In this document: piece by piece, positions 4,600 to 63,222 of the stretch | Numbering within the stretch: the first letter of the stretch is position 1 | Layout: every line of letters begins with the position of its first letter | NCBI GenBank assembly: GCA_046861395.1 | Contig: JBHHUC010000003.1 | Coordinates: 6,381-70,380, forward strand | Source of the DNA: Fidelibacterota bacterium | GTDB taxonomy: Bacteria; Fidelibacterota; Marinisomatia; Marinisomatales; JABMOV01 | Reading direction: 5' to 3' | DNA length: 64,000 nt | Notes under the pieces: generated by a model | The model's input: only the letters and a program-made list of their open reading frames with translations | Databases searched by the model: none | Told to the model about the DNA's origin: nothing | Translations under genes and position numbers: made by a program

Positions 4600-4624
4600 C
4601 CAATCTATAAAGTAGGAGAAAACA

Positions 4625-21310: not shown

Positions 21311-21314
21311 GGAC

Positions 21315-29012: not shown

Positions 29013-29048
29013 AGTTTAAATTAAATCAAATATTCAATGCTATTCCGC

Positions 29049-30227: not shown

Positions 30228-31271
30228 TTAAAGTTTGAATCCCAGAGATACGCGCTGGACGCCTTTCAGACGCTGAAAGTCGGTGTAGGAATAATCGATT
30301 TTTATCACGGTAGCCGATCCCCAGATCCGATAATTAATGCCAAGACCATAGGACAATCCTTCTTCGGCAGTATCGCGGAACAGATTGGCATAACCTGTGC
30401 GGAGGAAGAACATATTGTTTAATGCCAATTCTACACCGGCATTAACGGCTTCGGTATTATCATTGGGATGGATCGCGTCCAGGGCGAAACTCAAGCGGGT
30501 AACATCGGTATTAATCAATTCGCTGGACACGCCAACACGAAACATCAGCGGTAAGGGAAAGCGGTCCGTTTTATACCGTGCATCAACGTACTCTACTGTT
30601 CCCAGGTTGTCGGGATCGGGGTCGATGCTGATATCCAAGTCCCGCCCATCCAGTCTCATGCCGCCGCCATAGTTGGAAATACTGGCTCCCAGCCGGGTAT
30701 CTCCAAACGGTGTGATAAAGAGTATTCCCAGATCACCGGCCACAGTGGTGGCTTTCGAATGCCAGATATTTTCATGAATCATTTTTACCGTACCACCAAG
30801 CGAAAAATGATCAGTCAGCTTCCTGGCATATGTCAGATTCAATGCCAACCCGCCGGCTTCCCAGTATTCGCCGGTACCTTCCGGATTTTCGACGGTTCGA
30901 ACGATATCTCGGGGAACACTCAGACTGTTAACGGAGAGACCCAACACACCGAAACGTCCCGTATTAATGGTGGCGGCAGCAAAGTTCACATCCGTATTGA
31001 CCAACCAGGCATTGTTGACTACGACCAGATGAAGTCCTTGCAGGCCGGCGATTCCAGCCGGATTCCAAAAGATTGAGCCAATATCACCGGACATGGCTAC
31101 GAAGGCATTTCCCATTGATGATCCTCTTGCATCGGCTCCGATTTTCAGAAATGAAGCTGCCGTAGTCCCGGTCTTGGTAATGGTTTCCGTAATGGACTGA
31201 GCTTGAAGGCCGATCCAACATAATCCGATTAATAATATTGTTATTTTTATATTTTGTGTGAATTTCATCAT
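30228..31271 (-). CDS. PorV/PorQ-family (FadL-like) outer-membrane beta-barrel protein
   Basis: 347 aa with a signal peptide. TGTTAASFLKIGADARGSSMGNAFVAMSGDIGSIFWNPAGIA matches the conserved N-terminal PorV/PorQ pattern. Alternating beta-strand sequence, ending ...SLGFKL. 4-nt overlap with the upstream partner gene. Confidence 0.65.
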   Translation of the reverse strand: MMKFTQNIKITILLIGLCWIGLQAQSITETITKTGTTAASFLKIGADARGSSMGNAFVAMSGDIGSIFWNPAGIAGLQGLHLVVVNNAWLVNTDVNFAAATINTGRFGVLGLSVNSLSVPRDIVRTVENPEGTGEYWEAGGLALNLTYARKLTDHFSLGGTVKMIHENIWHSKATTVAGDLGILFITPFGDTRLGASISNYGGGMRLDGRDLDISIDPDPDNLGTVEYVDARYKTDRFPLPLMFRVGVSSELINTDVTRLSFALDAIHPNDNTEAVNAGVELALNNMFFLRTGYANLFRDTAEEGLSYGLGINYRIWGSATVIKIDYSYTDFQRLKGVQRVSLGFKL

Positions 31272-34675: not shown

Positions 34676-34693
34676 AAAATCTTTATCTCCAAT

Positions 34694-40600: not shown

Positions 40601-40719
40601 GGATCCAAACTCCAGGCCAGATTAAATCCGGCACTGGTGTTATATTGCGCAAAGGCACCGGAAATAAATAAAAGGAACAGGAATACATTCAACATTGGTA
40701 TCCTTTTTTTCATTTTCAC
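37606..40719 (-). CDS. FG-GAP/VCBS-repeat protein with T9SS C-terminal sorting domain
   Basis: 1037 aa with a signal peptide. About ten DxDxDGxxE-type motifs (DFDRDGHREI, GDIDQDGLYEI, DVDGDGDIELV, DFDDDGFKEI, DIDNDGKTDF, DLDGDGKQEI and others). Tail NYPNPFNPTTTIEY...VKIYNMMGQLV...SGAYIYSL...KMLLLK. Confidence 0.8.
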   Translation of the reverse strand: MKMKKRIPMLNVFLFLLFISGAFAQYNTSAGFNLAWSLDPTTDPNFVTRDGYGARSVQVGMDFDRDGHREILFTMDETLAPGGPDPGQVEVYLYENNGNDSYEHVWHYTSPDPGNSLPGLAYGDIDQDGLYEIYFGIPPAVGSNDATWGTHIFEQDASGAFPSTPTIIFQYGYAATDNFRPAGFVLDDVDGDGDIELVSIDRGARRMTVHSLATSTFDEFASFNEEFLNDTDLGGGGIYDVEVVDFDDDGFKEIWVNTWDMFSMAIFEASGPDTYSLQVDLNQIFPAANDPGSFNSHDMYFADADGDGALEGWFPMTDGILYYLDNVDSSVADLTGADFVQVGAFGGRSRGASMGDIDNDGKTDFVCSRGTEEMVARVEYLGFGDPSDSTNYEWTTIFESVGGNADRYYPPRISPVDLDGDGLREVVLTNIKATEVDQPAIIVLEYDPSTAQSLADGWTLRATFNHTSADSSFFDDVSGTPRTVIGGMDMDQDGAQEVIATAYSEHRVYVFEYDDVNQVFEQVWMSPADTNAHYSSTPRTVGVGDLDGDGKQEIVFPRATTNLEGWWVFEWDGVAGSDNYGDTYSSVNMVEIDTCCAGDGASFRGDHERTTIFDIDGDGKEELISMIRRGSTRGTLITSVNGDIEHNAGGNGFETWVSEFFLNKNDYGGGSPYHSLPADLDGDGNYELVNHTWNYFNFYNVTSTGPDTYVAADPATGTNYYQATYPDDHVSLFGGGAGDIDGDDNDEAFFPDYYTSELYVVDYNPGDDVLAIDGTHVVKIAESVGAFYASVFDVDGDGVNQVFTGSSYPKTVVNTAFTGTDPRDPFSYTSSVLYAGEPDVFTSITVVDSAGILTTSQTHSGAFASKVQAEFNDSPIDFDGDGHNELLVSFQGQSPTITTTNITWNGSGWDTTVTEVENSKAWAFILLENETDVVGVDQYAFITPDDYQLKQNYPNPFNPTTTIEYIIPIDKQVSVKIYNMMGQLVKTLVDNEFQSAGRHLVQWNGLNMNDTPVASGAYIYSLEWGHFKKTQKMLLLK

Positions 40720-49955: not shown

Positions 49956-52088
49956 CTATCGAATAATTATGAATTTTCTGTATGTCGAATCCCCTTTGCG
50001 GTACAGCAATTCATCAGTCACGGGGTCAATAATATCCTCCAGTACCTCAAAATATGCAATATATAACCCGGATGTGATGACCTGACGGTATTTTGTGACT
50101 GAATTCCACTCCTGATCGCCACTGCCATCCCGATGGTTAATTTCATGAATAAGATCGCCCCGTTCAGTATAAATCTTAATGCGACATTTCCCCGGAATAT
50201 CGTAAAACATGATCTTATCCGGTTGTCCCGGGAATTGCCGGGCTGTGTTGGCAATATGGTAGGGATTGGGAACAACACGAATTTGATCCAGGCCGCTTCC
50301 CTGCTGGCGCTTTAAAAAGGCCGCCCGGTTGGTTTTCGTATAGAACCGGCTGCTACGTAGCGGACCAGTCGGGTTAGCAATTCCTGTCGTATTCCTACTG
50401 CCATCGGAAACAGAACAAACATAATAATAATAGGAAAACCCCCGAATGGCCGTAACATCTTCAAATTCATAGATTCCCGCCGGACCGGAATAAATCATAT
50501 CAAAAGTCGTATCCGGTTTGCCGACTGCCCGGTAAACTTCATAGCCGGCGAAATTTGATTCAGTTTCTGATAGACTGGCCAGCCAGCTCAGAAAAATCCG
50601 GTCCCCACCTGAATTCACATTAAATACCGGTGGCGGCAAAGGAGGCTGAGGAGTGGCGAAACCGCTGTCATAATTCCGTTTTGCCCGACTGAACGTCAGC
50701 AGCAGGGAATCTTTTCCGGTATAAACCCAGGAATTCTTATACACATCCTTATCGGTGGTCGTTGTACCATCCGGCAGGTCAAACGGACCGGCATCATTGC
50801 TGTTTTCATAGGCAATTTTATAGCGTTCACCAATCAATTCGCACATTTCCCGGGACAGACCGTTGATCCCCTCCGCTTCAACAATGGTAACCGATTCTCC
50901 GTGCGCCAGGTTGAACGGTCCATAGGTAATCATGACATTGGTTCCGCCTTCGTCATTGTGGACGGTTGACGGGTCAACCAGATTGGTTGTTGAATAGGCC
51001 CCTTCCAGCTCATCCATGCGCGTATTACCGCCCTTATCCGCTCCCCCATAGGGATTCCCGGCCAGCATGGAAGCCAACCGTTGCATATTCTGTTCATCCG
51101 AAGGTTGCAGATTCCCCACGCTGGGATAGGTATCTCCGGCATGCCAGCCCAGAAATACCGGCTGGTCCGGATTATCGGTGGAATCATGGGGAGACATATC
51201 CACATGAAGGACCACCGATCCGACATGATGAGGTGATGTCAACCGGCCTTTCCCTGTAAGCTTGGGGGCACCGATATTGTCAAAAGAATTATTGGCATTT
51301 TGTCCCAGCCAACTGAACCCGCAGCGTAACCAGTCAACAATGCCATCCGCTTCCGTCAGCGGATCCGTGGCATGCAAAGCATAATCTTCTCCTCGCTTGG
51401 TGACCCACATATGTTTTCCCCAGGAAGCTGATCCTCCGACATACCATGATGCTTCCCGGCTCCCGCTGTACCGTGTTCCCCAGCCAATACGTACATTCCG
51501 TAAACTATCCGTCAATTCAATCTCATCATCACTGTCGGTATTCCCCGTGTTGGTAAAGGTAAAAACCTTTATGAAATAATTATCATGATATTCCTGGGAG
51601 AAAGCATAAATCGTCCGGTTCATGGTCAATCCCATGGCTGTATTCACGATATTGACAATTTTCCTGTCTGCCGGCAGGTCGGTATCATATTCATCGATAT
51701 CACCAAGATAGGGGGCAGAAAGATTGACACCATCGACATAAACCGCCGGCGGTTCGAATTTTGCGATCTGTTTCATTTCCATGGGAAAAATGCCGGTACC
51801 AACATAGCTCAGTGCGAAATACAAACCGTAGGCATTCCAGAACTGGTTTTTATCGTCGGTAAACGATTCACAGGTCAACCAGGAACGCTTGATGACGGCA
51901 TTATCCTGAAAGGGATAATCCGCCGGCCAGCGCAAACCTTCATAATAGGAAGTATTCCAGGCCCGTTCCGAACCCCAGGCTGAAAAGTGGGATTGCAGAG
52001 ACCCGATGCGAATATAGCGTTTTTCCGTTTCGTTTACCTGGGCCAGACTGAATCCCAGGAAGAGGATGAGAAAAATTTGTTTTTTCAT
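49956..52088 (-). CDS. secreted TBDR-partner protein (uncharacterised family) with FN3-like segment and divergent T9SS-like C-terminal domain
   Basis: 710 aa with a type I signal peptide (FSLAQV). Paralogue of 58003..60048 along its whole length. Tail RVVPNPY...CRIKIYTERGDLIHEINHRDGSGDQEWNS...SGLYIAYFEV...RKFIIIR. Begins 3 nt after the TBDR stop. Confidence 0.6.
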   Translation of the reverse strand: MKKQIFLILFLGFSLAQVNETEKRYIRIGSLQSHFSAWGSERAWNTSYYEGLRWPADYPFQDNAVIKRSWLTCESFTDDKNQFWNAYGLYFALSYVGTGIFPMEMKQIAKFEPPAVYVDGVNLSAPYLGDIDEYDTDLPADRKIVNIVNTAMGLTMNRTIYAFSQEYHDNYFIKVFTFTNTGNTDSDDEIELTDSLRNVRIGWGTRYSGSREASWYVGGSASWGKHMWVTKRGEDYALHATDPLTEADGIVDWLRCGFSWLGQNANNSFDNIGAPKLTGKGRLTSPHHVGSVVLHVDMSPHDSTDNPDQPVFLGWHAGDTYPSVGNLQPSDEQNMQRLASMLAGNPYGGADKGGNTRMDELEGAYSTTNLVDPSTVHNDEGGTNVMITYGPFNLAHGESVTIVEAEGINGLSREMCELIGERYKIAYENSNDAGPFDLPDGTTTTDKDVYKNSWVYTGKDSLLLTFSRAKRNYDSGFATPQPPLPPPVFNVNSGGDRIFLSWLASLSETESNFAGYEVYRAVGKPDTTFDMIYSGPAGIYEFEDVTAIRGFSYYYYVCSVSDGSRNTTGIANPTGPLRSSRFYTKTNRAAFLKRQQGSGLDQIRVVPNPYHIANTARQFPGQPDKIMFYDIPGKCRIKIYTERGDLIHEINHRDGSGDQEWNSVTKYRQVITSGLYIAYFEVLEDIIDPVTDELLYRKGDSTYRKFIIIR

Positions 52089-52091
52089 AAA

Positions 52092-55000
52092 TTATAATTT
52101 CACCGTAAGACCAATTACGATATCCCGCAGATTCAGAAAGGAAACGGGTTGGAGATTTGGCATATCAATATAGGCTTTGGTTTCAAGGATCTTTTTTTCC
52201 TCGGCCGTCAAATTATCCGGATCCACCGGATCAAAGGGCTGGTAGGGTGTATCATAACTGCGGTACTCTCCCAGCCGATCATAGCCTTTCTCCTTGCCCT
52301 CTTCCCAGTCAAAATGCAATGACTCAACATAGTTGATATAATCATAACTGTCGGCAAACCCGGCCGAATTCAAATACTTTTTATTCAACACATTTGTCAC
52401 ATCAATAAAGAAATTCACCCGCGCTGGTTTAAAGGAAAATGATTTTGCCAGGCGTAAATCCACGAACCATTTATTTTTCCATTGCACATTATCAACAATA
52501 CCCGGTTTCCCGCTGGGATTGTAAGTGGAATAGGCGCCGGTTTCATAACTGTAAATCGTGCTGAAGACCCACCCTTCCAGAGGATAAACACCTGCAAAGT
52601 CTGGTCCAAATTTTTCGGGAGATGTGACGTTCAAAACAGCATTGATATATGGTTGCGGATGGGGACGCGATAATTGTGGATTTACCACTTCATATTCACG
52701 CTGGAGATTAGGATCTTCGTAATAGCTGGTTAAGCCGAAATATCCAGATGTTTTTACCAGATAGGTGTAATTAATGAATCCCGTGAACCAGTCACCCCGG
52801 ACTTTTTCCAGGATAAATTCAATGCCGCGAATATCTTCATAATTATTATTAACCGCTTTCCGGTATTTGACCGAACCATTCAGGCTTTGATAATAAATCC
52901 AGCCGATTTGGTTGGTCACATCTTTATAATACGCCGTTACATTCAGTAAGTATATTTCCCTTAAAATGCGACTGAAGCCCAGTTCATAGGCAATGGTCTT
53001 CTCATAGGCCAGGTTGGGATTCCCCAAGTTAGTGACCAGCCCGTTGGATTCTCTTTGAATGCCAAAACGATATTGGGAATTCGGTTCGGAATAGAAATGC
53101 CCGTAATTAAAGAATAATTTCGATACCTCGGAAATAGGAAAGGAAATGCCCAGCCGTGGATTCAGTGAATTCTGAATATCCGGCTGGCGAGTTTTGGTAG
53201 AATCTTCAATCTCATTCCCCAATCCTTGACTGAGTTGCTCATCAAAGGGATTCAAAACATACTCAACCGTATTTGAACTGGAACGCTCTGCTCTCAGGCC
53301 AAGATTGGCAACAAACCCTTCAAATTCAATTTTATCCTGGAAATACAATGATAAACGATAGGGATCGACGGAATATACCAGATCGCGGTTCCAAGTGGAC
53401 ATTGAAGGATTCCTTGCAAAGGAAAAAACATCAAACCGATTCTGAATAAATTCAATGCCCGTCTTGATCAGGTTATTGGGGTTGATTTGATTGGTATAAT
53501 CCAATTTCGCTATGGTAGCCGAAACCGTCGACTTGTCACGGCCGATATTCATCCACCCGCCAATATTCATACCGTCAATTCCAGAAACGCCGTAACCCCA
53601 ATACCCGTAGGGTGCCTCATCGACAAAATAATCCGTAAATAATTCGATGGTTCGAGACGTGTCCCGTAAGGGTGTCTGATATGTTTTATATCGTGAATTG
53701 GAATATTGAAAAATGCTTTCGATATAACTGCTCTGATCGATGATATAATTCAGTTTAATGCCCAGACCCGACCGATAAATTTCCGTGGGGGAATAATAAC
53801 CCGGCATGAATAATACGGCTGCCGCGTTGGCATTCAGCAGATTGGCGACTGATTGATCGGATTTCAGCACATAGCCGGTGGGTGTAGTCGTCCAGTTATA
53901 GGGGGAAACGGAACCCGTTTCCTCATAATGTAATTCTGTTAGGATTTTTAATTTGTCTGAAGTGTCAATATTGAATTTCAGTCGTGTGTTGGCATTGGAA
54001 TACCGGTCCTTGGACAACGGAAATATGAACATGGATTCTTCCGAATAATGGGATAAATAGAACCGGATCAGTCCCAATCCCGGCATTTCTCCCAGAGGAC
54101 CACCAAGAGCCATATCAATGACTCGATCCGGCTCATGAATATCCCCGTTGCGACGATGCTGCCAGAGAAATACTTGCTGAGCCTGCTGTGGCGTAAGGTC
54201 GTTTGTCGGATCGGCATCTTTCAATGTATTTTGCGAAATGGCATTCCAGCCCTCAAAGGCAGGGTACTGTTTTTGGGTATAATCATCCCATCCGCCGGAC
54301 GAAGTTCCCGTCCAGCACACCGTCGAATCCAGGTAGGGACGTAAAAAATAGGAATCAGGATCATAAAGCGACGGTCCGAAATGCTTGGGACCCGGCGGAC
54401 GGTAATACAGGGCAGCCGCCCCATGGTACCGATCACGGCTCCCTTCTTTATTCACAATATTGATGATTCCGGAACGCACGTTCCCGTACTCAGCATTAAA
54501 ACCGCCGGATTGAACCTGTATATCGGTCAAGCCAAGCAGCGATGTCGTGGTCACAGGCGTGAAACTTCTGGCGTCGTTCTGAAGAAATCCATCAATATAT
54601 ACGCCGGCCTGGTTCGCAGCGCTGCCCCGAATAGACAATCCCCGCAACCCGGCCTGTAAACCAAGAACCTGGTCCACATCGGAAACAGGCATTTTCTCAA
54701 TTGATTCTGAAGTAATGGAAATGGTACTGGCGGACACATCCGGTTCCACATAGCGACGTTCGGCAGTAACCGTCACTTCACTTAATTCCACTGCTTCCAG
54801 TTGCATACTCAGATTGATCTGGGTCGTCTGATCGATTTCGACACGCACATCATTGACAATTAACGTGGCATAGCCAATAATTTGCGCATAGAGAGAATAA
54901 TTTCCGGGAGGAATATTTAGTAATGTATAGAACCCGTCAGTCTGAGATACCGCGCCGGCACCGATATTTGGCAAATACACATTTACACCCGGTAAGGGAT

Positions 55001-55109
55001 CATTTGTTTCGGATGATGTGACAATTCCGGAGATTTTACCGGTTACACCGGCCAGGGAAATGGTAATAAATAATAATGAGATTATTACATATTTCCCATG
55101 GTTCCACAT
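52092..55109 (-). CDS. TonB-dependent receptor with N-terminal carboxypeptidase-regulatory-like domain
   Basis: 1005 aa. GKISGIVTSSETNDPLPGVNVYLP...GFYTLLNIPPGNYSLYAQIIGY. Plug motifs LSIRGSAANQAGVYIDGF and SGGFNAEYGNVRSGIINIV. Close paralogue of 60061..63222. Confidence 0.85.
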   Translation of the reverse strand: MWNHGKYVIISLLFITISLAGVTGKISGIVTSSETNDPLPGVNVYLPNIGAGAVSQTDGFYTLLNIPPGNYSLYAQIIGYATLIVNDVRVEIDQTTQINLSMQLEAVELSEVTVTAERRYVEPDVSASTISITSESIEKMPVSDVDQVLGLQAGLRGLSIRGSAANQAGVYIDGFLQNDARSFTPVTTTSLLGLTDIQVQSGGFNAEYGNVRSGIINIVNKEGSRDRYHGAAALYYRPPGPKHFGPSLYDPDSYFLRPYLDSTVCWTGTSSGGWDDYTQKQYPAFEGWNAISQNTLKDADPTNDLTPQQAQQVFLWQHRRNGDIHEPDRVIDMALGGPLGEMPGLGLIRFYLSHYSEESMFIFPLSKDRYSNANTRLKFNIDTSDKLKILTELHYEETGSVSPYNWTTTPTGYVLKSDQSVANLLNANAAAVLFMPGYYSPTEIYRSGLGIKLNYIIDQSSYIESIFQYSNSRYKTYQTPLRDTSRTIELFTDYFVDEAPYGYWGYGVSGIDGMNIGGWMNIGRDKSTVSATIAKLDYTNQINPNNLIKTGIEFIQNRFDVFSFARNPSMSTWNRDLVYSVDPYRLSLYFQDKIEFEGFVANLGLRAERSSSNTVEYVLNPFDEQLSQGLGNEIEDSTKTRQPDIQNSLNPRLGISFPISEVSKLFFNYGHFYSEPNSQYRFGIQRESNGLVTNLGNPNLAYEKTIAYELGFSRILREIYLLNVTAYYKDVTNQIGWIYYQSLNGSVKYRKAVNNNYEDIRGIEFILEKVRGDWFTGFINYTYLVKTSGYFGLTSYYEDPNLQREYEVVNPQLSRPHPQPYINAVLNVTSPEKFGPDFAGVYPLEGWVFSTIYSYETGAYSTYNPSGKPGIVDNVQWKNKWFVDLRLAKSFSFKPARVNFFIDVTNVLNKKYLNSAGFADSYDYINYVESLHFDWEEGKEKGYDRLGEYRSYDTPYQPFDPVDPDNLTAEEKKILETKAYIDMPNLQPVSFLNLRDIVIGLTVKL

Positions 55110-55118
55110 TATAAAAGC

Positions 55119-56435
55119 CTAGTTCGTCCGACCGTAGTATGGTGCTCCCTGTTTGGTCATATCCACTCGGAATAGCCCTTTGTAATTCACGGGATTATAA
55201 TCCCAGGAAGCACCATCGGGAACAGTGGCTGTATTTCGGCTGTTCACATAGAGGTAGTTATTGTTTCCCCAGGTAAGTTTGGTGGCCGGGGCTGGCAAGA
55301 CTTCGGCATAGATCGGTTCCGGTGTGGCATCGGCATACGGAGGCGAAACCTTATACAGGGCCGGCCCCAGACTGGCCAGCGAAGATGGATCAATGTAATC
55401 CACGCCGACAATCAATGTACCGTCAAGTGCAAATGTTAAATCAAATGGTTTTGTAGCATCTGCTCCCAGAGCGGCTTCCCAATCCAACAACAATTCTACG
55501 GGACCCAACGAATCAGAGCTGACGATTGCTGTGCGATAGATACCATAGAGCACAGCCGTGGTGTCCGACCCGATGTATTCTCCGATGACGTAAACATAAT
55601 CTTCAAAAACACGAATGGCGTTTAAATGCACGTCGTCGGGAAATGTGACGGCACTGGTAAAGGATGATTCACCGGCTCCCAAATTGATCCGGTATAAGAC
55701 ATTCCGTCGGCCGCCGGCATACATATTTCCATATGAATCGAAATCCAGATCATAGGCCCGTGTATTACTGGGGAGCCGTACGATATTGTTGGCGTCATTC
55801 CCTTCGTCAACCTCATAAATATTCTTATGTGACATGGCCAGAATCAGCGAACTGTTCGCCGCATAATAGCGCATTCCAATCGCTTTCTGTTTTGCCGAAT
55901 GAGCCGCAAAGGTTACTGAATCCGCCTCTCCGTTGGGAAACACCCGCAGGATTTCCCTGTTTTCCGATTCGGAAACAAAAAGATTTTCGCTGTTATCGAT
56001 GGCAATGGCCCAGAGGTTCGTACCCAACGGATCAAACCCGCCCCAGGAAACAACGGCCGGAAATAGCTTATAGTTATCCCACTCCGCAAATTCATAGGCC
56101 CCGATGACGGAAATCTGAATTTTAACGCTGTCGGCCACAAGGTTCGGCGCTTTGACGACTAATTCGGTGGCAGATAGGGACTGAATTTCGCCGGGATTCC
56201 CGTTGAAATAGATTTGGCAGCGATTGATATCGGAACCAAAATTTTCTCCCGTTATCGTCAGGATTCCAATCCCGGCAAAGGCCGAATCCGCCGGAGCAAT
56301 TGACGTGATAACCGGGTCGGGTAAAACGTCCGGATTATCATTATATATTTTTTCCGGATAATTGGGACTCTCACAACTGAAGAGTCCAATGGTTATCAGT
56401 CCTAAAATCAACGTAAATCGTTTCATGATCAGCAT
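55119..56435 (-). CDS. IPT/TIG-domain + beta-propeller (NHL-like) lipoprotein
   Basis: 438 aa with lipobox IGLFSC. ITSIAPADSAFAGIGILTITGENFGSD...IYFNGNPGEIQSLSATELVVKAP is an IPT/TIG-like Ig domain. The rest is repeat-like beta-rich sequence. Confidence 0.6.
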   Translation of the reverse strand: MLIMKRFTLILGLITIGLFSCESPNYPEKIYNDNPDVLPDPVITSIAPADSAFAGIGILTITGENFGSDINRCQIYFNGNPGEIQSLSATELVVKAPNLVADSVKIQISVIGAYEFAEWDNYKLFPAVVSWGGFDPLGTNLWAIAIDNSENLFVSESENREILRVFPNGEADSVTFAAHSAKQKAIGMRYYAANSSLILAMSHKNIYEVDEGNDANNIVRLPSNTRAYDLDFDSYGNMYAGGRRNVLYRINLGAGESSFTSAVTFPDDVHLNAIRVFEDYVYVIGEYIGSDTTAVLYGIYRTAIVSSDSLGPVELLLDWEAALGADATKPFDLTFALDGTLIVGVDYIDPSSLASLGPALYKVSPPYADATPEPIYAEVLPAPATKLTWGNNNYLYVNSRNTATVPDGASWDYNPVNYKGLFRVDMTKQGAPYYGRTN

Positions 56436-56446
56436 CCTTTTATCAC

Positions 56447-57466
56447 TTATAATGTGATCTGATAAGATAATTGATGGATATTATTAAAGACGCCGAAAGG
56501 CGTAAAGGCATAGTCGATGGAAATTCCCCGCTCCTTGCGGTTCAGTTGGATTCCAACGCCATAGGTCAATGAGCGTTCATCATAATTCCCGTAATACCCG
56601 GCCCGCAGGAATAAGACCGAAAGGGGATTGTATTCCATGCCAATATTCAAACGTTCGGCATAGGACCGGGGATGTAGTGCGTCAATCGACAGCATAAAGC
56701 GAGCATCAGGATTGAGTGGGGTTTTTAACAGAGATAAGAATGAAAACTGGGCCAGATCAACGGAGCCGCCCAAGGCAAATGTCAGGGGCAACTGAAATCC
56801 TTCATTCTGATATTTGATTTCCTGCGAGAAATTCCTGACGGTCATACCGAAGGAAAAATCTTTCCAGCCCGTTTCATAGATGGTCCCGAAATCATAGGCC
56901 ATAGTGGAAACCCAGTTCTTAATGGTTGTATTGGTGGAATCCGTTTCTGGGATGACACTACGTCCTAGATACTGGTAGGTTGATTTCACGTGACCACCGA
57001 CAGAAAATTTATCGGATAACGCCTTGGCATACCCTATGCCGACAGCCAAGGCCGTTGGTTGCATGATTTCGGTATCAATATAGCCGGCATCATTTTCCCA
57101 GACCATTGTTCCCTGAATCTTGCCATAGTCCACGGATTGCGCACTGAAGGCAAATACACCGTATTTCCCTTGTGCCGGGACAATACTGACACTGGCCGTT
57201 ATATAATTTATATCGGCAATGAATGAATTTTGGCTGAAGTTCGCTGACAGAAAATTCTTTGTTCGTGCCATCCCGGCCGGATTAAAGAATACCGAATTGG
57301 AATACCCCTTCATCGTGGTCATTGCCTCCGCCATGGCGGTAGCACGGGCATCAGAGGCGACACTCAAGAACTGAAACCCAGTTTGAGCCAGCTTTATGTC
57401 CCCGGATATGGCCAGCGTAGATAATAAACTCATTGCAGCGATTGTTTTTATGAATGATGCCTTCAT
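56447..57466 (-). CDS. PorV/PorQ-family (FadL-like) outer-membrane beta-barrel protein
   Basis: 339 aa with a signal peptide. LAQTGFQFLSVASDARATAMAEAMTTMKGYSNSVFFNPAGMA parallels the motif in 30228..31271. Beta-barrel-like alternation. Confidence 0.65.
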   Translation of the reverse strand: MKASFIKTIAAMSLLSTLAISGDIKLAQTGFQFLSVASDARATAMAEAMTTMKGYSNSVFFNPAGMARTKNFLSANFSQNSFIADINYITASVSIVPAQGKYGVFAFSAQSVDYGKIQGTMVWENDAGYIDTEIMQPTALAVGIGYAKALSDKFSVGGHVKSTYQYLGRSVIPETDSTNTTIKNWVSTMAYDFGTIYETGWKDFSFGMTVRNFSQEIKYQNEGFQLPLTFALGGSVDLAQFSFLSLLKTPLNPDARFMLSIDALHPRSYAERLNIGMEYNPLSVLFLRAGYYGNYDERSLTYGVGIQLNRKERGISIDYAFTPFGVFNNIHQLSYQITL

Positions 57467-57469
57467 CGC

Positions 57470-57991
57470 TTATTCCTTATTTAACACGATCATTTTAAAC
57501 CCGCGTCCTTCCTCCATTGCCAACCGAACCAAGAATTGTCCGGCTGTCAATACATATTCCTTCCGCCCGACAATTTCATTGCAGGCAGCAATTGTTTCCA
57601 GGTCCAACGTAACCGGTTCATATTGCTGTTCTGTACCGGATGCATCATACACCGTTACATTGACGTTCAGATTAGTATAGAGAATAACTGTTCCATTGCT
57701 TTCCTGGGATAGGACTACAAAGGTTGTATCATCCGTTTTACCGATCTTCCACAAAGAATCCGGATTAACCGTCACGACGGCCCCCAGAGATAACAGAGAA
57801 TCAATTTTCCCGGATGCATCAGCTACTGAATCCGGAATCCAATGAGATGAAACCTGATTAAATAATGTATCTGTCTCAAATATCTGACAGGCCTGTTCAT
57901 CAATGGCGTTAATGGTAAATGTTTCATCGGAATAATTATCACAGCCCAACCACAACAAACTCATTGCGGCAAATGAAATCAATTTATTCAT
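57470..57991 (-). CDS. small lipoprotein of unknown function
   Basis: Lipobox LLWLGC. The ATG at 57991 follows GAGGGAAG. The longest ORF starts at 58006, where it overlaps the stop of the upstream gene in an ATGA. No family recognised. Confidence 0.5.
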   Translation of the reverse strand: MNKLISFAAMSLLWLGCDNYSDETFTINAIDEQACQIFETDTLFNQVSSHWIPDSVADASGKIDSLLSLGAVVTVNPDSLWKIGKTDDTTFVVLSQESNGTVILYTNLNVNVTVYDASGTEQQYEPVTLDLETIAACNEIVGRKEYVLTAGQFLVRLAMEEGRGFKMIVLNKE

Positions 57992-58002
57992 GGTTTCTTC
58001 CC

Positions 58003-60048
58003 TCATCGGATAATGATGAATTTCTTTATGATGGATTCTCCCGCTTTCACTGATATCCCCGTTTTCCAGTCGATATAATCATCCAATACCTCAAAATGAG
58101 CAATATACATGCCGCTGACAACGACCTGCCGGGAACTGGTAATGGAATTCCAGACTTCATCACCACTGCCATCCAAGTGGTCGATGGAATAAATCAAATC
58201 ACCACGTTCGGTAAAAATACGGATTTTGCAGGTCGGTGGAATATCCAGGAACATGATCCGGTCGGAACCGGCATCGGTGCCATATTGAAGCTCCCGCGCC
58301 CGGATATTATAGGGATTCGGCACAACCCTAATTCGATCCAGTGTTCCGGGCTGCCTTTTCAGAAAGGCCGGTTGATTGGTCCGGGTATAAAATAAACTGC
58401 TCTCCATGGGAACTCCGGGATGGATATCATTCGTGGAACCGTCATCAACGGTCGTGATGTAGTAGAAATAATCGAATCCACGAATGGCGGAATGATCTTC
58501 ATAGCGCGTTTCCCCCACCGGCAGCTCCGCTAGCAACGTGTAGGTCGTATCAAAAACCTGAACGGCCCGGTAAATCCTGTATCCCGTAAGATTGGGCCAG
58601 GATTCCGCCGTATTGGACCATTCCAGGATGATCCTGTCTCCGCCCGATGTTACCGTAAACTGGTCCGGGGGCGGTGGTTCATGGGGAATGGACAAACCAT
58701 TATCCCAGGTATTCTGTGCGCGGGTAAAAGCCTGGAACAGGGAATCCTTCCCTGACATGACCAGCGTATTCTTTTGATCATTACTTACAACACCCGACAA
58801 CCAATCGGCACCGATTTCAATGGCATGTTTCCGTGACAGACCGGCAACTGCTTCCACGGTAACAACTGTCAGACTATCGCCCGGTGCCATGGTATAGGGA
58901 CCGTACCCCCGGCCAATGGAATATCCGCCACCGGTTTGGCCGTATTGATCAGCAAACCCGGTTCCCACTTCTTCGGCATGGCTGGCTGCCGGATGACCAC
59001 TGCTCATGAGGGCATATTCATCAGACATTTTTGCAGCATTGAAATGGTCGTTGCCGGAATTGTAGGGACCATCCGAATCGGGAAACGGTGTAGATGTGGG
59101 TTGCATGGGGTCATTGGAATGATCATCCGGTGATTTATCAGCATGGATTGTCATTACTCCGGCAAATTGCGCCGCTCCCAGACGACCGTTACCGTTAAAG
59201 TACGGAGCACCGATATTGTCCCCCGGTCCACCAAAACCGGAGTGTAAACCATGCCAGGCATAGGAGACCCGGAAAGGATTATCGGGATCACCGGCGGAAT
59301 AGTTGCCATATTCGCCCAGAACTTCATTCATCGTATTACGTCCCCAGGTGGCATTTTGCGGCATCCAGAAATATCCGTAAGAACATGCTTCCTTTGTCAT
59401 GGCATAGCGTTCCTGCCAAAACATGTACACATCGTTCAATGTGACGGATTGCTTATTTCCATTTACATCGTAAATCCCCGTATTCTTAAACGTATAGGTT
59501 ACAATATAGTAATTATCATGATTCGGTTGACTGTAACCGTAGATCTTACGCGTCACCGTGATCCCCAGGCTGGTATTGGTCGAATTAATGATTAAACGGT
59601 CACTGGGAATTGTTTCATCCACTTCATCCACCAGATCGGTAAAGTCCAGCTCCGAGGCTGGCAAACCATCCACCAGCACGACCGGACGGGGATAACGGGC
59701 AATCAGTCGAAAATCCGTCGGCATGAATTCCGCCAGTTCATTCATCACCCGGGGGCCGACATGGACGACTTTCGCCGGGTAAGTTTGTCCCGTAATGGGA
59801 TCGGCATAATTCGTGGCACCGATCCAGAATGCCTTGGCTGCTTTTACATCCTGATAACGGAATTGAGCCGGCCACTGCAGGCCATCCTGCTGGTCGGGAA
59901 TCAGATGGCGACGGCCGACTTCAATTTCACAGCCACCGCTACTGAACCAATCATGAAGCTGACCAACCGATATCCATCGAACCTCGTCGCCCCATCCGGA
60001 GGATGAGACAAGCAATACAACGATGATCCATGATAATGTTTTACGCAT
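58003..60048 (-). CDS. secreted TBDR-partner protein (uncharacterised family) with FN3-like segment and divergent T9SS-like C-terminal domain
   Basis: 681 aa with a signal peptide. Paralogue of 49956..52088 (HDNYYIVTYTFKNTG; GGDRIILEW...GYRIYRA; RVVPNPY...CKIRIFTERGDLIYSIDHLDGSGDEVWNS...SGMYIAHFEV...KKFIIIR). Begins 12 nt after the TBDR stop. Confidence 0.6.
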   Translation of the reverse strand: MRKTLSWIIVVLLVSSSGWGDEVRWISVGQLHDWFSSGGCEIEVGRRHLIPDQQDGLQWPAQFRYQDVKAAKAFWIGATNYADPITGQTYPAKVVHVGPRVMNELAEFMPTDFRLIARYPRPVVLVDGLPASELDFTDLVDEVDETIPSDRLIINSTNTSLGITVTRKIYGYSQPNHDNYYIVTYTFKNTGIYDVNGNKQSVTLNDVYMFWQERYAMTKEACSYGYFWMPQNATWGRNTMNEVLGEYGNYSAGDPDNPFRVSYAWHGLHSGFGGPGDNIGAPYFNGNGRLGAAQFAGVMTIHADKSPDDHSNDPMQPTSTPFPDSDGPYNSGNDHFNAAKMSDEYALMSSGHPAASHAEEVGTGFADQYGQTGGGYSIGRGYGPYTMAPGDSLTVVTVEAVAGLSRKHAIEIGADWLSGVVSNDQKNTLVMSGKDSLFQAFTRAQNTWDNGLSIPHEPPPPDQFTVTSGGDRIILEWSNTAESWPNLTGYRIYRAVQVFDTTYTLLAELPVGETRYEDHSAIRGFDYFYYITTVDDGSTNDIHPGVPMESSLFYTRTNQPAFLKRQPGTLDRIRVVPNPYNIRARELQYGTDAGSDRIMFLDIPPTCKIRIFTERGDLIYSIDHLDGSGDEVWNSITSSRQVVVSGMYIAHFEVLDDYIDWKTGISVKAGESIIKKFIIIR

Positions 60049-60060
60049 ACAAAACCTTCT

Positions 60061-63000
60061 TTAGAAGTTGTAAGTGATATTGAGACCAAAGAATACGTCC
60101 CGGGGGTTCAGGAAAGTAAAATAGGTCTGATTGGGCATATCGATATACGCCTTGTCATCCAGGACCCGTTTCAGGAATGATGTTTCCGTCTCCTGCCAGC
60201 CGGCTCCAGTATATTGATAATATATTTCATCCGCCTGGTTGAAATAAATGGCCCGTGTGTTTGGATTCTGCACATTCGTGAGAGAAACCACCGATTCAAT
60301 GGGAACAAATTCAACACCATCCCGACGATAATCTCCCGGCTGATCGTTACCGGGAATATTTCCATACAGCAGCTTTTCCCCTACACTCTTGGGCAAGTGT
60401 AAAGATTGCATATAATCATCAAAATCATAACCATCGGCAAACGATTCACCAGAAAACCGCTTGAGATTCAATACATTGAATATATCGGCAAAGACTTTGA
60501 CGGAAAATTGCTTGAAGGCAAAAATCTTTGACACTTTTAAGTCGAAATTATAATAATCTTTCCACTGTACATTAAACTGAATACCCCGTATCCGGTTGGG
60601 ATTATACGTGAACCAGGATCCGCTGGTCCAACGCCCAATAATATTAAAGTGCCATCCGCCCAGAGGATAGACCGTACCCAATGCAGGACCAAATTTCTTG
60701 GGTGAAAATATATCCACATATCCCTTGGCCCGCGGTGTCGGCAATGGTTTGGACTGATAGCGGTTTGTCTTTTCATATTCCGTTTGTTCGGCCGGATTCT
60801 GGAATTGTTTACCAATATCAAAATAGCCGGAAGTGGAAACACGGTATTCATAATTCACCATTCCAGTATACCAGTTTCCAAAGCGTTTGGACATTTCGAT
60901 TTCAAAACCGCGAATGTCTTCATACAGGTTATTGGTCATGATATAGGAATTAATCTTACCGTCCGAACTGATAATCTGTGTCCAATCCTGTTCATTGGTT
61001 ACGTCCTTATAATAGGCCGAAATACGCAGTAAATACATGTTTGCGATGGCACGGTCAAAACCCAATTCATAGGAAATCGTATTGGCCGGATCAATACTGG
61101 GATCTCCCAGGTACCGAATGGCACCCACACTATTCCTTTGTATTCTGTACAATGCTTCGGCCGTTGCCGATTGGTTATAATGACCGTAATTAAAATAGAG
61201 TTTTGATACATCAGTAATGGGATGGGAAAAGGCCAGCCGCGGATTGAGCACTTTAACAGCCTTAGCATTTTTCGCGAATTTTGAGTCCCAGATTCCATCT
61301 TGGTCGTAATAAAAGAAATCCTTATCAAAGGTATCAAAGGAAAACCACTTTCCATTGGGATCGTAATATTCTCCGCTCAGCCCCAGAATGGCAACCAGAC
61401 CCTTGAATTCTATTTTATCCTGGATGTATGCATTAAAGCGATAGGGGTTAGTACTGAATTCAGCCCAAGTATTTCCTTCCGGCAAGACTTTATTAATGGA
61501 ACCGAACTGCATATTTATATCATAGGAAATATATTCAAACCCGGTCTTCAGCTGATGATTGGTGGAATATTGCGTAGTATAGTTTCCCGATAAAGAGAAG
61601 GAAGATACTACGGTAGAATCCCGGGCCGTTGAAATGGGGCCGCCAAGCGTGAGGCCACCATCCACGCTGGACATGAATTCATCCATGAAACCAAAGGGTT
61701 GTTCATCCACCTGATACCCAGGGAATATTTCAAAAAGTTTTTCTGTGTTTCTACGTCGTCCAGGACCTGTCAGATAACGATTCTCGGTGGTCTGCCACCG
61801 TAATTCATAAAACGTAGTCGGTGATAATACGTGGGAAAAAGACAGGGAGTACGTCCGGTTTTCCCGTGTTGTTTCAGAAAAATAATCATTGGTGAAAATA
61901 CGCCAGGGGATGGTAAATCCGGTTCGGTCCACAATACCGGCTACACCGGCCACAGAATAGAAATACGATGTGCCGCCCGCCCGGGAAGCATTGGTGGCTG
62001 TCATACCATTCCATAAAGTGGAAGCTGACAATTTCATATTTTTTGCTAAATCAGAAGTTATCTTCAGCACATTGCCATAGGTATTTCTACCATCCGTTGC
62101 CAGGGGGAATAAATACATGTTCTGTTCTTCTATCCGCGAATAATAAAATCGTAGATTTCCCAACTTTTCGCTGATAAAGGGAACGGGGCCACCAAAACCC
62201 AGATCAATGGTATAATCAGGATCACGGATCACACCGTCTTTTCGATGCTGCCATTCGAACAAACGCTTTGCCGCCGTTGGTGTCAGATCATTGCTTGGAT
62301 CATCATCGCTCAATGTTGCTGCCGCTATAGCAACCCACCCGTCAAAAGGTGCATACTGTCGCCGGTCATATTCATCCCACGGACCGTTTTCCGTACCGTA
62401 CCAGGCCGTGCTGTCCCATAAAAACGGCTTCAACCAGTAAGATTCGGACTGAAAAACAGGATCACCGAAATGTTTGGCCGCCGGGGGGCTGTACTTGGTA
62501 GTAATCGTGGCCGAATATTTCTGGGGATCGCCTTCTTTCGAAACCACATTGATGATTCCGCCACGTACATTATTGTATTCTGCATTAAATCCGCCGGTTT
62601 GGACCGAAACCTCCTGGATGGAACTGAGGGGTATGCCGGTAATAGGCGCATCATTGCGACTATCCCGTAAAGTGACACCATCAATCATCAGCATGGTCTG
62701 GTCTGATCCGCTGCCCCGAATACCCAGAGTGGATGTAATGCCGGCCTTCAATCCCACGATTTCCCCTAACGTAGTAACGGGCAATGATTCAATTTCATCA
62801 TTGGTAACACTCAATTGGCTGGCGGCAACATCTGCTTTGACCACCTTGTGTTCGGCAATGACTTCAACACTTTCGCCCTCCAGGACTTCCACAGGGAGAA
62901 CGACATCAACAATGGTCGTCAAATCTATTTCAACCCTTACTTGCCGAACCGTGGTTTTCTTGAATCCAATCATGGAAACAACCAAATCATATTCGCCGGG

Positions 63001-63222
63001 AGGAACATTCAGGATTGTATAATGGCCATCCACATCTGATGATGTTCCTAGATAGGTGCCGGAAATCAGAATATTGGCTCCCGCTAATAGAGCACCATCG
63101 GCCTCAGCCGTTACGGTACCAGTGATTTTCCCTGTTGTCCCGGCAAATAGAATATTTACAAAAAGAAGTGATAAAAGCAGGGGAAGAATGTGTTGTTGTA
63201 GTTTTCTCATCACCAAATCCAT
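60061..63222 (-). CDS. TonB-dependent receptor with N-terminal carboxypeptidase-regulatory-like domain
   Basis: 1053 aa. GKITGTVTAEADGALLAGANILIS...GHYTILNVPPGEYDLVVSMIGF. Plug motifs GIRGSGSDQTMLMIDGVTL and TGGFNAEYNNVRGGIINVV. Barrel ends ...NITYNF. Confidence 0.85.
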   Translation of the reverse strand: MDLVMRKLQQHILPLLLSLLFVNILFAGTTGKITGTVTAEADGALLAGANILISGTYLGTSSDVDGHYTILNVPPGEYDLVVSMIGFKKTTVRQVRVEIDLTTIVDVVLPVEVLEGESVEVIAEHKVVKADVAASQLSVTNDEIESLPVTTLGEIVGLKAGITSTLGIRGSGSDQTMLMIDGVTLRDSRNDAPITGIPLSSIQEVSVQTGGFNAEYNNVRGGIINVVSKEGDPQKYSATITTKYSPPAAKHFGDPVFQSESYWLKPFLWDSTAWYGTENGPWDEYDRRQYAPFDGWVAIAAATLSDDDPSNDLTPTAAKRLFEWQHRKDGVIRDPDYTIDLGFGGPVPFISEKLGNLRFYYSRIEEQNMYLFPLATDGRNTYGNVLKITSDLAKNMKLSASTLWNGMTATNASRAGGTSYFYSVAGVAGIVDRTGFTIPWRIFTNDYFSETTRENRTYSLSFSHVLSPTTFYELRWQTTENRYLTGPGRRRNTEKLFEIFPGYQVDEQPFGFMDEFMSSVDGGLTLGGPISTARDSTVVSSFSLSGNYTTQYSTNHQLKTGFEYISYDINMQFGSINKVLPEGNTWAEFSTNPYRFNAYIQDKIEFKGLVAILGLSGEYYDPNGKWFSFDTFDKDFFYYDQDGIWDSKFAKNAKAVKVLNPRLAFSHPITDVSKLYFNYGHYNQSATAEALYRIQRNSVGAIRYLGDPSIDPANTISYELGFDRAIANMYLLRISAYYKDVTNEQDWTQIISSDGKINSYIMTNNLYEDIRGFEIEMSKRFGNWYTGMVNYEYRVSTSGYFDIGKQFQNPAEQTEYEKTNRYQSKPLPTPRAKGYVDIFSPKKFGPALGTVYPLGGWHFNIIGRWTSGSWFTYNPNRIRGIQFNVQWKDYYNFDLKVSKIFAFKQFSVKVFADIFNVLNLKRFSGESFADGYDFDDYMQSLHLPKSVGEKLLYGNIPGNDQPGDYRRDGVEFVPIESVVSLTNVQNPNTRAIYFNQADEIYYQYTGAGWQETETSFLKRVLDDKAYIDMPNQTYFTFLNPRDVFFGLNITYNF

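Follow-up and report, generated by a model that had tools for sequence, protein, structure and literature searches.

How might a secreted protein that has no lipid anchor and no likeness to SusD be held beside the TonB-dependent receptor (TBDR) whose gene precedes its own? The question is raised by a locus in the window (here, the whole stretch of 64,000 nucleotides that was analysed), in which our ORF analysis places seven genes on the minus strand, from 63222 down to 49956, with each junction at most 12 nt. The array includes two such pairs, and we asked what else belongs to them, how widely they occur, and which mechanism they suggest.

A seven-gene array with two transporter-partner pairs

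The first pair consists of TBDR1 (T1; 60061..63222, 1053 aa) and, after 12 nt, Partner1 (P1; 58003..60048, 681 aa), and the second of TBDR2 (T2; 52092..55109, 1005 aa) and, after 3 nt, Partner2 (P2; 49956..52088, 710 aa). The original prediction had the coordinates and the minus strand of these four ORFs right, and its claim that gaps do not exceed 12 nt throughout 63222..49956 holds upon recomputation, with the remaining junctions comprising one 4-nt overlap and gaps of 3, 11, and 9 nt. A GHL10 gene lies about 7 kb from the array, on the opposite strand.

The paralogy that had been proposed for both gene families is also borne out. T1 and T2 are 37% identical over 1035 columns (688 bits, E = 0), and the peptides quoted for them align as described; P1 and P2 are 37% identical over 728 columns (E = 2e-134). 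These alignment scores place the paralogy of both receptors and partners far beyond chance.

T1 and T2 share one architecture, with a signal peptide, a CarboxypepD_reg domain, a TonB-box-like motif, a plug, a large barrel, and a terminal F. Both CarboxypepD_reg (64.7 bits in T1) and Plug (PF07715; 33.5 bits in T1 and 27.9 in T2, cut-off 23.9) exceed the Pfam cut-offs in both proteins, and the TonB-box-like motifs read GESVEVIAEH in T1 and LSEVTVTAER in T2. Among 95 homologues, E-x-(V/I)-x-(V/I)-x-A-(E/K)-(R/K) is conserved, at the level of the motif, between CarboxypepD_reg and the plug, and 71 of the 95 end in F. The barrel regions of T1 and T2 give partial matches to the barrel regions of TonB-receptor models; neither protein matches the barrel model OMP_b-brl_4, which one related T (locus L084) does match. 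The SusC/RagA model TIGR04056 (cut-off 368.25) gives no match in T1 and a sub-threshold match to the N-terminal part only in T2 (55.8 bits). With its plug, TonB-box-like motif, and terminal F, T looks like a working TonB-dependent transporter.

The partners are built differently. P1 comprises a type I signal peptide, a beta-supersandwich (residues ~20-405), a helical hairpin (406-449), an FN3 domain (~455-545), and a C-terminal domain (CTD; 573-681). Its AF2 model is almost entirely beta (pLDDT 83), and the model of the N-domain has a pLDDT of 83.6 and a pTM of 0.88. The hydrophobic N-termini of the two partners, MRKTLSWIIVVLLVSSSGWGDE and MKKQIFLILFLGFSLAQVNE, contain zero Cys; since the signal peptides contain no cysteine, the partners have no lipobox, as predicted. 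Foldseek searches with the models relate the P head to the beta-supersandwich of the N-terminal domains of GH94, GH116, and GH65 enzymes and find no catalytic fold in it. These N-terminal domains are themselves non-catalytic. The head carries many invariant polar residues.

The partners had been described as unlike SusD and as belonging to an uncharacterised family, and our searches agree on both points. Pfam and NCBIfam give no family match in P1 or P2 and no SusD match in 30 family members even at E <= 1, and the combined profile and structure searches yielded neither a characterised family nor a solved-structure relative. P1 nevertheless has more than 1000 homologues, publicly named “fibronectin”, “fibronectin type III domain-containing protein”, or “hypothetical”.

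A specialised C-terminal domain shared with a third module

Both partners end in a specialised tail. It occupies 58006..58353 in P1, where it reads VVPNPY .. insert .. IPxxCxIxIFTERGDL .. H .. W .. SGxY .. KFIIIR, and 49959-50306 in P2, both on the minus strand. [quoted passage not shown] What had been overlooked is how specialised the tail is: it is related to the type-A CTD but distinct from it. Specifically, HMM scores split the three special from the four canonical CTDs detected in the window, and the special tail is distinguished by an insertion and an invariant Cys. Por_Secre_tail (PF18962 / TIGR04183) matches none of the three special-tailed partners of the window and none of 30 family members, and the type-B models (PF13585 / TIGR04131) give only a weak CHU_C match (best E = 0.011) in 4 of 30 partners. 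Judged by these profiles, the tail is a separate class, homologous to genuine type-A CTDs, and is nearer to type A than to type B.

The tail profile finds 1923 representative protein clusters at E <= 1e-10, and in the listed matches that consist of a single stretch, this stretch reaches the C-terminus or stops no more than a few tens of residues short of it. The tail is also better conserved than the body of the protein, but this is not discriminating, as the same holds for a control family with canonical CTDs. Since the window encodes five proteins with Por_Secre_tail matches, a T9SS is presumably present; four of these proteins score above the Pfam cut-off, and the fifth reaches 25.5 bits against a cut-off of 27, yet its FlgD_ig match is above the cut-off of that model.

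The third special CTD (31271-31603, minus strand) belongs to a module at 30228-37474 that the original inventory, right about its two modules, had missed. This module runs T->P->V on the minus strand and consists of TBDR3 (T3; 34694..37474, 926 aa), Partner3 (P3; 31268..34675, 1135 aa), and a PorV/PorQ-family barrel (V3; 30228..31271, 347 aa). T3 represents a second module type, with Pfam CarboxypepD_reg and Plug (48.1 bits) and a sub-threshold TIGR04056 match (79.2 bits) to its N-terminal part only, and it is related to T1 at the N-terminal region and along a central stretch of ~400 residues. Its orthologues in KSB1 and Calditrichaeota score >1000 bits, and PF00593 is recorded for T3 orthologues. 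P3 has a head unrelated to those of P1 and P2, and in hhalign its last ~110 residues alone match the P1 family (97.6%, E = 4.4e-12). Unrelated heads with a common tail are in this way found between a T and a V in both module types. P3 homologues at least 59% identical occur in Marinimicrobia, KSB1, and Calditrichaeota, and the T->P3->V gene context is conserved in other genomes. In addition, six further tail carriers with heads of 808-1490 aa have a T upstream and a V downstream wherever the contig permits checking. After module 3 come AnmK and a NagB-like gene, which are both catabolic. As for the substrate, the window gives a weak lead, specific to it, to peptidoglycan fragments.

A PorV/PorQ-family barrel and further predicted surface proteins

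Between the two T-P pairs of the array lie three conserved parts: a small lipoprotein, the barrel V, and a TIG-domain lipoprotein (G), all on the minus strand. V1 (56447..57466, 339 aa) matches the PorV/PorQ-family model NF033709 with 174.7 bits, and V3 with 194.7 bits (cut-off 90). PorV proper (NF033710; V1 64.4 against a cut-off of 250, V3 72.2) and PorQ proper (NF033711; V1 73.1 against 220, V3 65.5) were rejected as identities, and V gives no match to the PorP/SprF family. On these scores, V is a paralogue within the PorV/PorQ family that stands apart from PorV proper and PorQ proper alike. Two T-P pairs share a single V in this window, as they do in many loci. Of all the parts, V tells most about how a partner that is not a lipoprotein could be kept at the surface.

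The small lipoprotein (57470..58006, 178 aa) has the lipobox LGC with acidic residues after the Cys and no family match in Pfam and NCBIfam profile searches. Its orthologues occupy the same position in 11 of 80 loci, namely the closest relatives plus L018, L044, L076, and L077, and a 193-aa gene takes this position in Calditrichota bacterium GD2. G (55119..56435, 438 aa) has the lipobox FSC and a Pfam TIG match of 48.8 bits; its resemblance to the Bacteroides IPT/TIG proteins 3tc9 and 4hw6 is non-significant. Beyond P2, an NHL/SGL beta-propeller protein (47494..49842, minus strand; Pfam SGL, NHL, and Por_Secre_tail) carries a canonical T9SS type-A CTD. Such a propeller is a frequent array member elsewhere, following G in many loci, and propellers with canonical CTDs, of the NHL and FG-GAP kinds, are likewise conserved in these operons. 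The propeller gene of the window also carries a perfect internal duplication of 963 nt.

Conservation across phyla

The T-P pairs belong to a widely conserved, uncharacterised outer-membrane module of several little-studied phyla. We examined 80 loci from other genomes, labelled Calditrichota, KSB1, Marinimicrobia/Fidelibacterota, Melioribacteraceae, Delongbacteria, and WOR-3. The adjacency of TBDR and partner, whose conservation the original prediction had proposed to survey, is kept in 73 of the 77 assessable loci, with T upstream of P, and all 110 TBDR genes found are on the strand of the partner. Nothing that the original prediction had named as grounds for its refutation was encountered. 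The pair is real, but as a two-gene unit it was incompletely described: V lies downstream of P, within about 1.4 kb, in 69 of 75 loci, and usually G follows V (45/61). Three more loci have the order T-P-T-P-V, and the adjacency of P and V also holds for P3-type and other tail carriers. Three partners (L039, L041, and L053) are orphans with neither T nor V nearby. A SusD-like partner is present in none of the modules examined.

The linkage of T, P, and V is accompanied by co-divergence, as T and V sequences cluster by module type across phyla and not by organism. Comparisons of V with V give 271-412 bits when both belong to one type and about 100 bits across types; V3, which is 27% identical to V1, reaches 349-370 bits with the V proteins of P3 modules from other phyla and about 105-115 with those of P1 modules. 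Likewise, comparisons of T with T exceed 1000 bits within the T1 and T3 types and give about 150 between module types, with T2 scoring 685-800 bits against the T1 type. Some genomes hold several module copies and two head superfamilies, and partner identity exceeds 50% across phyla.

The most complete counterpart is found in Calditrichota bacterium GD2, which has the same eight genes in the order T-P-small-V-TIG-propeller-T-P, with only the propeller placed differently. Its neighbours are the housekeeping genes relA, greA, aroA, and aroE, and its flanks hold no CAZyme, regulator, or catabolic enzyme. Since Pfam and NCBIfam searches find neither CAZymes nor regulators within 49956-63222 as well, the label “PUL-like” that had been given to the array is weak.

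Proposed mechanism and alternative explanations

T-P-V is probably a SusD-independent way of placing a substrate-catching protein beside a TonB-dependent importer. We infer T9SS export of P, retention of its CTD, docking on V, contact with T, and substrate uptake. Specifically, T would be the importer, given its CarboxypepD_reg extension, TonB box, plug, and large barrel, while P would be exported by Sec and then cross the outer membrane through the T9SS. Its special CTD would be neither cut off nor swapped for a lipid anchor, and the retained CTD would dock on the V of the same operon. This docking would follow the example of PorU/PorV and PorZ/PorQ, in which the CTDs are retained (PMC10202324), and of type-B CTD proteins, which bind PorP/SprF barrels (PMC9143113); a further precedent is BamH, which is docked by the FadL-like BamG (PMC12578637). 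Docked P would be kept at the cell surface next to T, with its head binding substrate and handing it over to T, and the TIG lipoprotein and the CTD-bearing propeller would be additional surface binders. Such a system would be functionally SusCD-like, made of T9SS cargo and a tethering barrel instead of a SusD lipoprotein. That the array represents two copies of an uptake module of this kind, in which T9SS-exported P docks on V and feeds T, has in our estimation an even chance of being right. Against it count the three orphan partners, the scores of the tail below the T9SS-CTD cut-offs of Pfam and NCBIfam, and the sharing of one V by two T-P pairs, which complicates the stoichiometry. More tentatively, and with rather more doubt than belief, we suggest that T, P, and V assemble into a stable machine of the outer membrane, a lipoprotein-independent “utilisome” in which a FadL-fold, PorV-like barrel tethers the retained CTD of a T9SS-delivered lid over T.

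Looser co-operation would account for part of the same evidence. P may be ordinary T9SS cargo, either a binder or an enzyme of unrecognised fold, whose CTD is cleaved and which is released or LPS-anchored without a stable complex; V would then be an extra PorV-type shuttle for this cargo class, and T would import products independently. The homology of the tail to cleavable type-A CTDs and the conservation of canonical-CTD propellers in these operons are consistent with this, and the invariant polar residues of the P head could form an active site. However, the insertion and the invariant Cys set the tail apart as a class of its own, no catalytic fold was found in the head, and V co-diverges with module type, which a generic shuttle need not do, so that we consider this explanation unlikely. 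We judge it more improbable still that the module is a surface structure or a biogenesis/export machine and not an importer, with T Oar-like or a scaffold and P a constitutive coat held by V. Oar of Myxococcus, a secretion-linked TBDT, would be a precedent, and P and T are very highly conserved across phyla. This conservation of the partner, together with the housekeeping neighbours of a GD2 array that lacks regulator and catabolic enzyme, is unlike diversifying, regulated PULs and could hint at a constant, non-nutritional role. A FadL-fold barrel is also known within a biogenesis machine, where the FadL-like BamG docks BamH (PMC12578637). Against such a machine, the conservation of the TonB box and the plug argues for gated transport, the several module copies and two head superfamilies fit substrate diversification, and the genes after module 3 are catabolic.

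The FadL fold shared by PorV-family proteins (PMC12578637) raises the further alternative that V is a true channel, of FadL type for hydrophobic compounds, with P and T serving the acquisition of lipids or other hydrophobic substrates. V3 does match Toluene_X, if only weakly, and some V homologues match UPF0164. The PorV/PorQ family model nevertheless scores far above FadL/TodX, and the strict linkage of V to a CTD-bearing protein matches the pattern of T9SS cargo-barrel pairs; a channel function is, in our view, very improbable.

Significance and comparison with known systems

We found no paper that describes the T-P-V module and none that accounts for the capture and import of large substrates by these bacteria. 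Fidelibacterota (Marinimicrobia/SAR406) are described as common to many ocean, freshwater, and subsurface habitats (PMC11652737). Most of what is known of the other phyla with the module comes from metagenome-assembled genomes. A highly conserved module of a TBDT and T9SS-type parts is a concrete, testable candidate for uptake machinery in these organisms. Experiments are feasible because Caldithrix abyssi DSM 13497, which is in culture, has a partner of its own (WP_006931028.1) that shares at least 90% identity with one in the full GD2 array. If the proposed docking is true, the principle of a CTD held by a cognate PorV-like barrel would reach nutrient uptake, beyond the T9SS attachment complex and gliding adhesins. 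If the utilisome is true, an alternative to SusCD would be widespread in FCB-group phyla other than Bacteroidota, and the T9SS would gain a direct structural role in nutrient import.

The module resembles SusC/SusD (RagA/RagB) in having a large TonB-dependent transporter with an N-terminal CarboxypepD_reg-like extension, directly followed by the gene of a predicted cell-surface accessory protein, and in its extra surface proteins (here the TIG lipoprotein and propellers) and tandem module duplication. However, SusD is an alpha-helical TPR protein and a surface lipoprotein, whereas P is predicted to be all-beta (supersandwich, FN3, and CTD) and has no lipobox. In addition, T falls below the SusC/RagA model cut-off of 368, the module has a PorV-like barrel as an additional, obligatory member, CAZymes and regulators are absent from the array, and the partners stay >50% identical across phyla.

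With PorU-PorV, PorZ-PorQ, and the type-B pairs, the module shares a CTD-bearing secreted protein encoded beside a dedicated PorV-fold barrel, a CTD class apart from bulk type-A cargo, and a barrel that is a family member and not PorV itself. The type-B pairs use a PorP/SprF barrel, whereas V is of the PorV/PorQ family and the tail here is nearer to type A. Moreover, here a TonB-dependent transporter always precedes the pair, which is not known of those T9SS cargo-barrel pairs.

Two further kinds of receptor offer partial parallels. Oar-type receptors are likewise of ~1000 aa, combine CarboxypepD_reg with a plug and a barrel, and have no SusD partner, and protein secretion in Myxococcus requires its Oar, a CarboxypepD_reg-TBDT; we know of no Oar-type gene linked to a CTD protein and a PorV-like barrel. 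In BtuB-BtuG of Bacteroides and TbpA-TbpB of Neisseria, the gene of a TBDT lies beside that of a non-SusD, beta-rich surface protein that is thought to capture and pass on the ligand. BtuG and TbpB are acyl-anchored lipoproteins, whereas P has no lipobox and carries instead a T9SS-like tail, with V as its candidate tethering barrel.

Results

The receptor-partner array encodes more than two genes per unit

The ORF map contains an unbroken string of seven minus-strand genes between 63222 and 49956, with intergenic gaps, in gene order, of 12, -4, 3, 11, 9, and 3 nt. The string begins with the TonB-dependent receptor TBDR1 (T1; 63222..60061, 1053 aa) and its secreted partner P1 (60048..58003, 681 aa), followed by a small lipoprotein with a lipobox (58006..57470, 178 aa), a PorV/PorQ-family protein (V1; 57466..56447, 339 aa), and a TIG-domain lipoprotein, also with a lipobox (G; 56435..55119, 438 aa). 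It ends with a second receptor, TBDR2 (T2; 55109..52092, 1005 aa), and a second partner (P2; 52088..49956, 710 aa). The receptors share 37% identity over 1035 columns and the partners 37% over 728 columns (E = 2e-134), and each receptor exceeds the Pfam cut-offs for CarboxypepD_reg and Plug. The ORF map and alignments thus agree with every factual statement of the original prediction, namely gene coordinates, strand, gaps, and the paralogy of receptors and partners; its claim that the partners have no lipobox also stands, as the signal peptides of both are Cys-free. Promoter and terminator scans returned sites no more common than in shuffled sequence.

Among 95 sequences of the receptor family (T), a TonB-box-like motif, E-x-V-x-V-x-A-E-R, is conserved after the N-terminal extension and ahead of the plug, and 71 of the 95 end in F; T fails the SusC/RagA model. 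V1 and the corresponding barrel of a third module, V3, score 174.7 and 194.7 bits, respectively, on the PorV/PorQ family model (cut-off 90) and fall below the PorV and PorQ equivalog models. Therefore, they are extra paralogues. For G, comparison with solved structures gave non-significant matches to Bacteroides IPT/TIG proteins and nothing better.

The third module, likewise on the minus strand, consists of an FG-GAP propeller with a canonical T9SS C-terminal domain (CTD; 37606..40719), TBDR3 (T3; 34694..37474), the 1135-aa partner P3 (31268..34675), and V3 (30228..31271), in that order. This exact order is repeated in KSB1 and Calditrichaeota contigs (L081-L083). In the two KSB1 contigs, a small gene of the four-helix-bundle family PF05635 (23S_rRNA_IVP) sits between T and P3 (L081, 8538-8915; L082, 3252-3629), and in the Calditrichaeota contig L083, such a gene lies just before T (4251-4625).

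The module is conserved across phyla

We surveyed 80 loci from other genomes and found a T homologue directly upstream of the partner in 73 of 77 assessable loci, with all 110 T genes on the same strand as the partner. A PorV-like gene lies downstream of the partner in 69 of 75 loci, three further loci have the order T-P-T-P-V, and V is in turn followed by the TIG lipoprotein in 45 of 61. Of the 46 long loci, 31 have two or more T genes. Three loci (L039, L041, and L053, the last two from the same MAG) hold orphan partners, with neither a TBDR nor a PorV-like gene within 6 kb. In the genome of Calditrichota bacterium GD2, the array reads T-P-small gene-PorV-like-TIG-SGL propeller (with CTD)-T-P and is flanked by housekeeping genes; the cultured Caldithrix abyssi DSM 13497 encodes a partner (WP_006931028.1) at least 90% identical to that of the GD2 array.

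The linkage also has a counterpart in sequence divergence. Across phyla, V proteins of one module type score 271-412 bits against each other, whereas V proteins of different types from a single genome reach only ~100 bits. For T proteins, scores inside the T1 type and inside the T3 type exceed 1000 bits (T2 reaches 685-800 bits against the T1 type), compared with ~150 bits from one module type to another. This co-divergence by module type indicates that T, the tail of the partner, and V behave as cognate sets.

These results bear on the interpretation in the original prediction, which we find partly supported. A conserved, uncharacterized TBDR-partner system is borne out by the upstream T genes and by the partner's lack of a Pfam or NCBIfam family. 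The reading as a two-gene unit gives way to a larger module that includes V and often the TIG lipoprotein, and the label “PUL-like” is not supported, given the housekeeping surroundings in GD2.

The partner head adopts a predicted β-supersandwich

Searches with P1 and P2 against Pfam and NCBIfam gave no usable family, and a PDB sequence search gave marginal FN3 matches only, with no solved sequence relative. P1 has >1000 homologues at 50-93% identity, labeled Calditrichota, KSB1, Marinimicrobia/Neomarinimicrobiota/Fidelibacterota, Melioribacteraceae, Delongbacteria, or WOR-3; they are publicly named just “fibronectin” or “hypothetical”, and no precomputed Pfam domain is recorded for any of them. 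An AF2 model of whole P1, built on a 30-sequence alignment (pLDDT 83), predicts four parts, in which a large all-β domain at the N-terminus (residues ~20-405) is followed by a helical hairpin (406-449), FN3 (~455-545), and a C-terminal β-sandwich (574-681).

FN3 tandems dominate the Foldseek matches of the full-length model. The N-terminal domain modeled by itself (pLDDT 83.6, pTM 0.88) matches only β-supersandwich domains, at low TMq (0.28-0.35): GH94, GH116, and GH65 enzymes, aldose 1-epimerase, and the P1 domain of YidC. The parts of the glycosidases that match are, we take it, their N-terminal, non-catalytic domains. Neither a catalytic fold nor a SusD-like fold emerged from the sequence and structure searches with P1. 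Because all matches are low-TM supersandwiches, function cannot be read from the head fold; the modeled fold is compatible with carbohydrate binding and does not prove it.

A specialized CTD-like tail is shared by unrelated partners

P3 resembles P1 and P2 only in its tail, which corresponds to their final ~110 residues (hhalign 97.6%, E = 4.4e-12); the rest of P3 is unrelated to P1 and P2. Combined into a profile, these three special tails are homologous to a second profile, built from four genuine T9SS type-A CTDs encoded in the window (hhalign 93.3%, E = 2.8e-7), and HMM scores set three “special” CTD proteins of the window apart from four “canonical” ones. Unlike the canonical CTD, the special tail has inserted residues behind the PNP motif and carries an invariant block, “IP..C.I.I(F/Y)T..G(D/E)L”.

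A search of 1.84 billion representative proteins with the special-tail profile returned 5638 proteins at E ≤ 1e-3, of which 1923 reach E ≤ 1e-10. Among the listed single-stretch matches, the tail lies at the C-terminus or a few tens of residues away; carriers are about 700, 800-960, 1110-1230, or 1490 aa long, and their heads fall by BLAST into two superfamilies, P1-like and P3-like. Six further carriers have an upstream T and a downstream V as far as their contigs, truncated ends included, let this be checked. The core of the profile matches 11 and 13 times in tandem in two large proteins, P0197 (3930 aa) and P0223 (2295 aa), respectively; judging from these matches, the β-sandwich occurs also as an internal repeat and not solely as a terminal tail. 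Two P3 homologues (P0324 and P0331) have a precomputed match to PF27730, a Pfam family that the copy used here does not contain, and the P3 head may already be on record as a domain of unknown function.

In the partner family, pairwise identity is higher in the tail (69%) than in the body (57%). We dropped this comparison as a test of CTD retention since a control family with canonical CTDs, the NHL propellers, is likewise biased (59% versus 46%), and the test does not discriminate.

Neighboring genes offer a window-specific substrate lead

Peptidoglycan and amino-sugar genes surround the modules at 26685-30191 (minus strand), 17772-22253 (plus), and 43961-46462 (minus). AnmK and a NagB-like 775-aa protein follow V3 directly, with 36-nt gaps, and the window also encodes two secreted enzymes, an Amidase_3 that has Big_5 and a CTD and a Peptidase_M23 with a T9SS CTD, as well as a PBP4-like S13 peptidase and an LD-carboxypeptidase (LdcA, S66). 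The window has its closest relatives in sequences labeled Fidelibacterota or Marinimicrobia, and the sole cultured Fidelibacterota member, Fidelibacter multiformis, depends on exogenous muropeptides (PMC11652737). On account of these genes and this dependence, the cluster hints at scavenging of cell-wall fragments, and peptidoglycan fragments or muropeptides are a weak candidate for the substrate. Elsewhere these genes are not tied to the module: of 89 other loci, one has the amidase nearby and none has AnmK; therefore, this lead is specific to the window.

An NHL/SGL propeller gene (47494-49842) contains a perfect 963-nt direct repeat (47797-48759 and 48817-49779, spaced 1020 nt), which reflects a very recent tandem duplication or else an error of assembly. 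With this repeat, the window protein is a double propeller of 782 aa, versus about 450-500 aa in orthologues elsewhere. On the plus strand, an ORF for a putative GHL10-family glycoside hydrolase (40896-42578) shares 86 nt, read in a different frame, with an ORF that has Big_5 domains and a canonical T9SS CTD (42493-43956). The two may be a single secreted enzyme gene broken by a frameshift or sequencing error. In 5 of 89 loci, the surroundings of the module include a GHL10 homologue.

Discussion

PorU and PorZ retain their CTDs and are seated on PorV and PorQ, and cognate PorV-like barrels have been reasoned, in a review, to shield the CTD from cleavage (PMC10202324). FadL-fold barrels can also dock surface proteins, as one does in the BAM complex of Bacteroidota (PMC12578637). 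By analogy with these cases, we infer that the partner would be T9SS cargo whose specialized CTD is retained and docked on a PorV-like barrel encoded by the module itself. Docking would keep the β-supersandwich head surface-located and adjacent to T, and the head would then pass substrate to this TonB-gated transporter. Gene linkage and homology are observed here; export, docking, contact with T, and uptake are deduced from them and from the published cases. Taken whole, the proposal has, in our judgment, about an even chance of being correct.

Retention of the CTD separates this proposal from a looser co-operation of the same proteins, in which the CTD of the partner is cleaved; we consider such an arrangement rather unlikely. 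The very high sequence conservation and the housekeeping context of the array would also suit a surface or biogenesis machine with no nutritional role, a reading that we hold to be improbable. That V instead serves as a FadL-type channel seems very improbable.

We found no description of the module in the open-access literature, where absence is not proof. In proposed function it resembles SusCD and TBDT-lipoprotein pairs, although it fails every SusD- or SusC-specific test. Its partner-barrel half is like the cargo-barrel anchoring pairs of T9SS, from which it differs in combining a PorV/PorQ-family barrel, a type-A-like tail, and consistent genetic coupling to a transporter.
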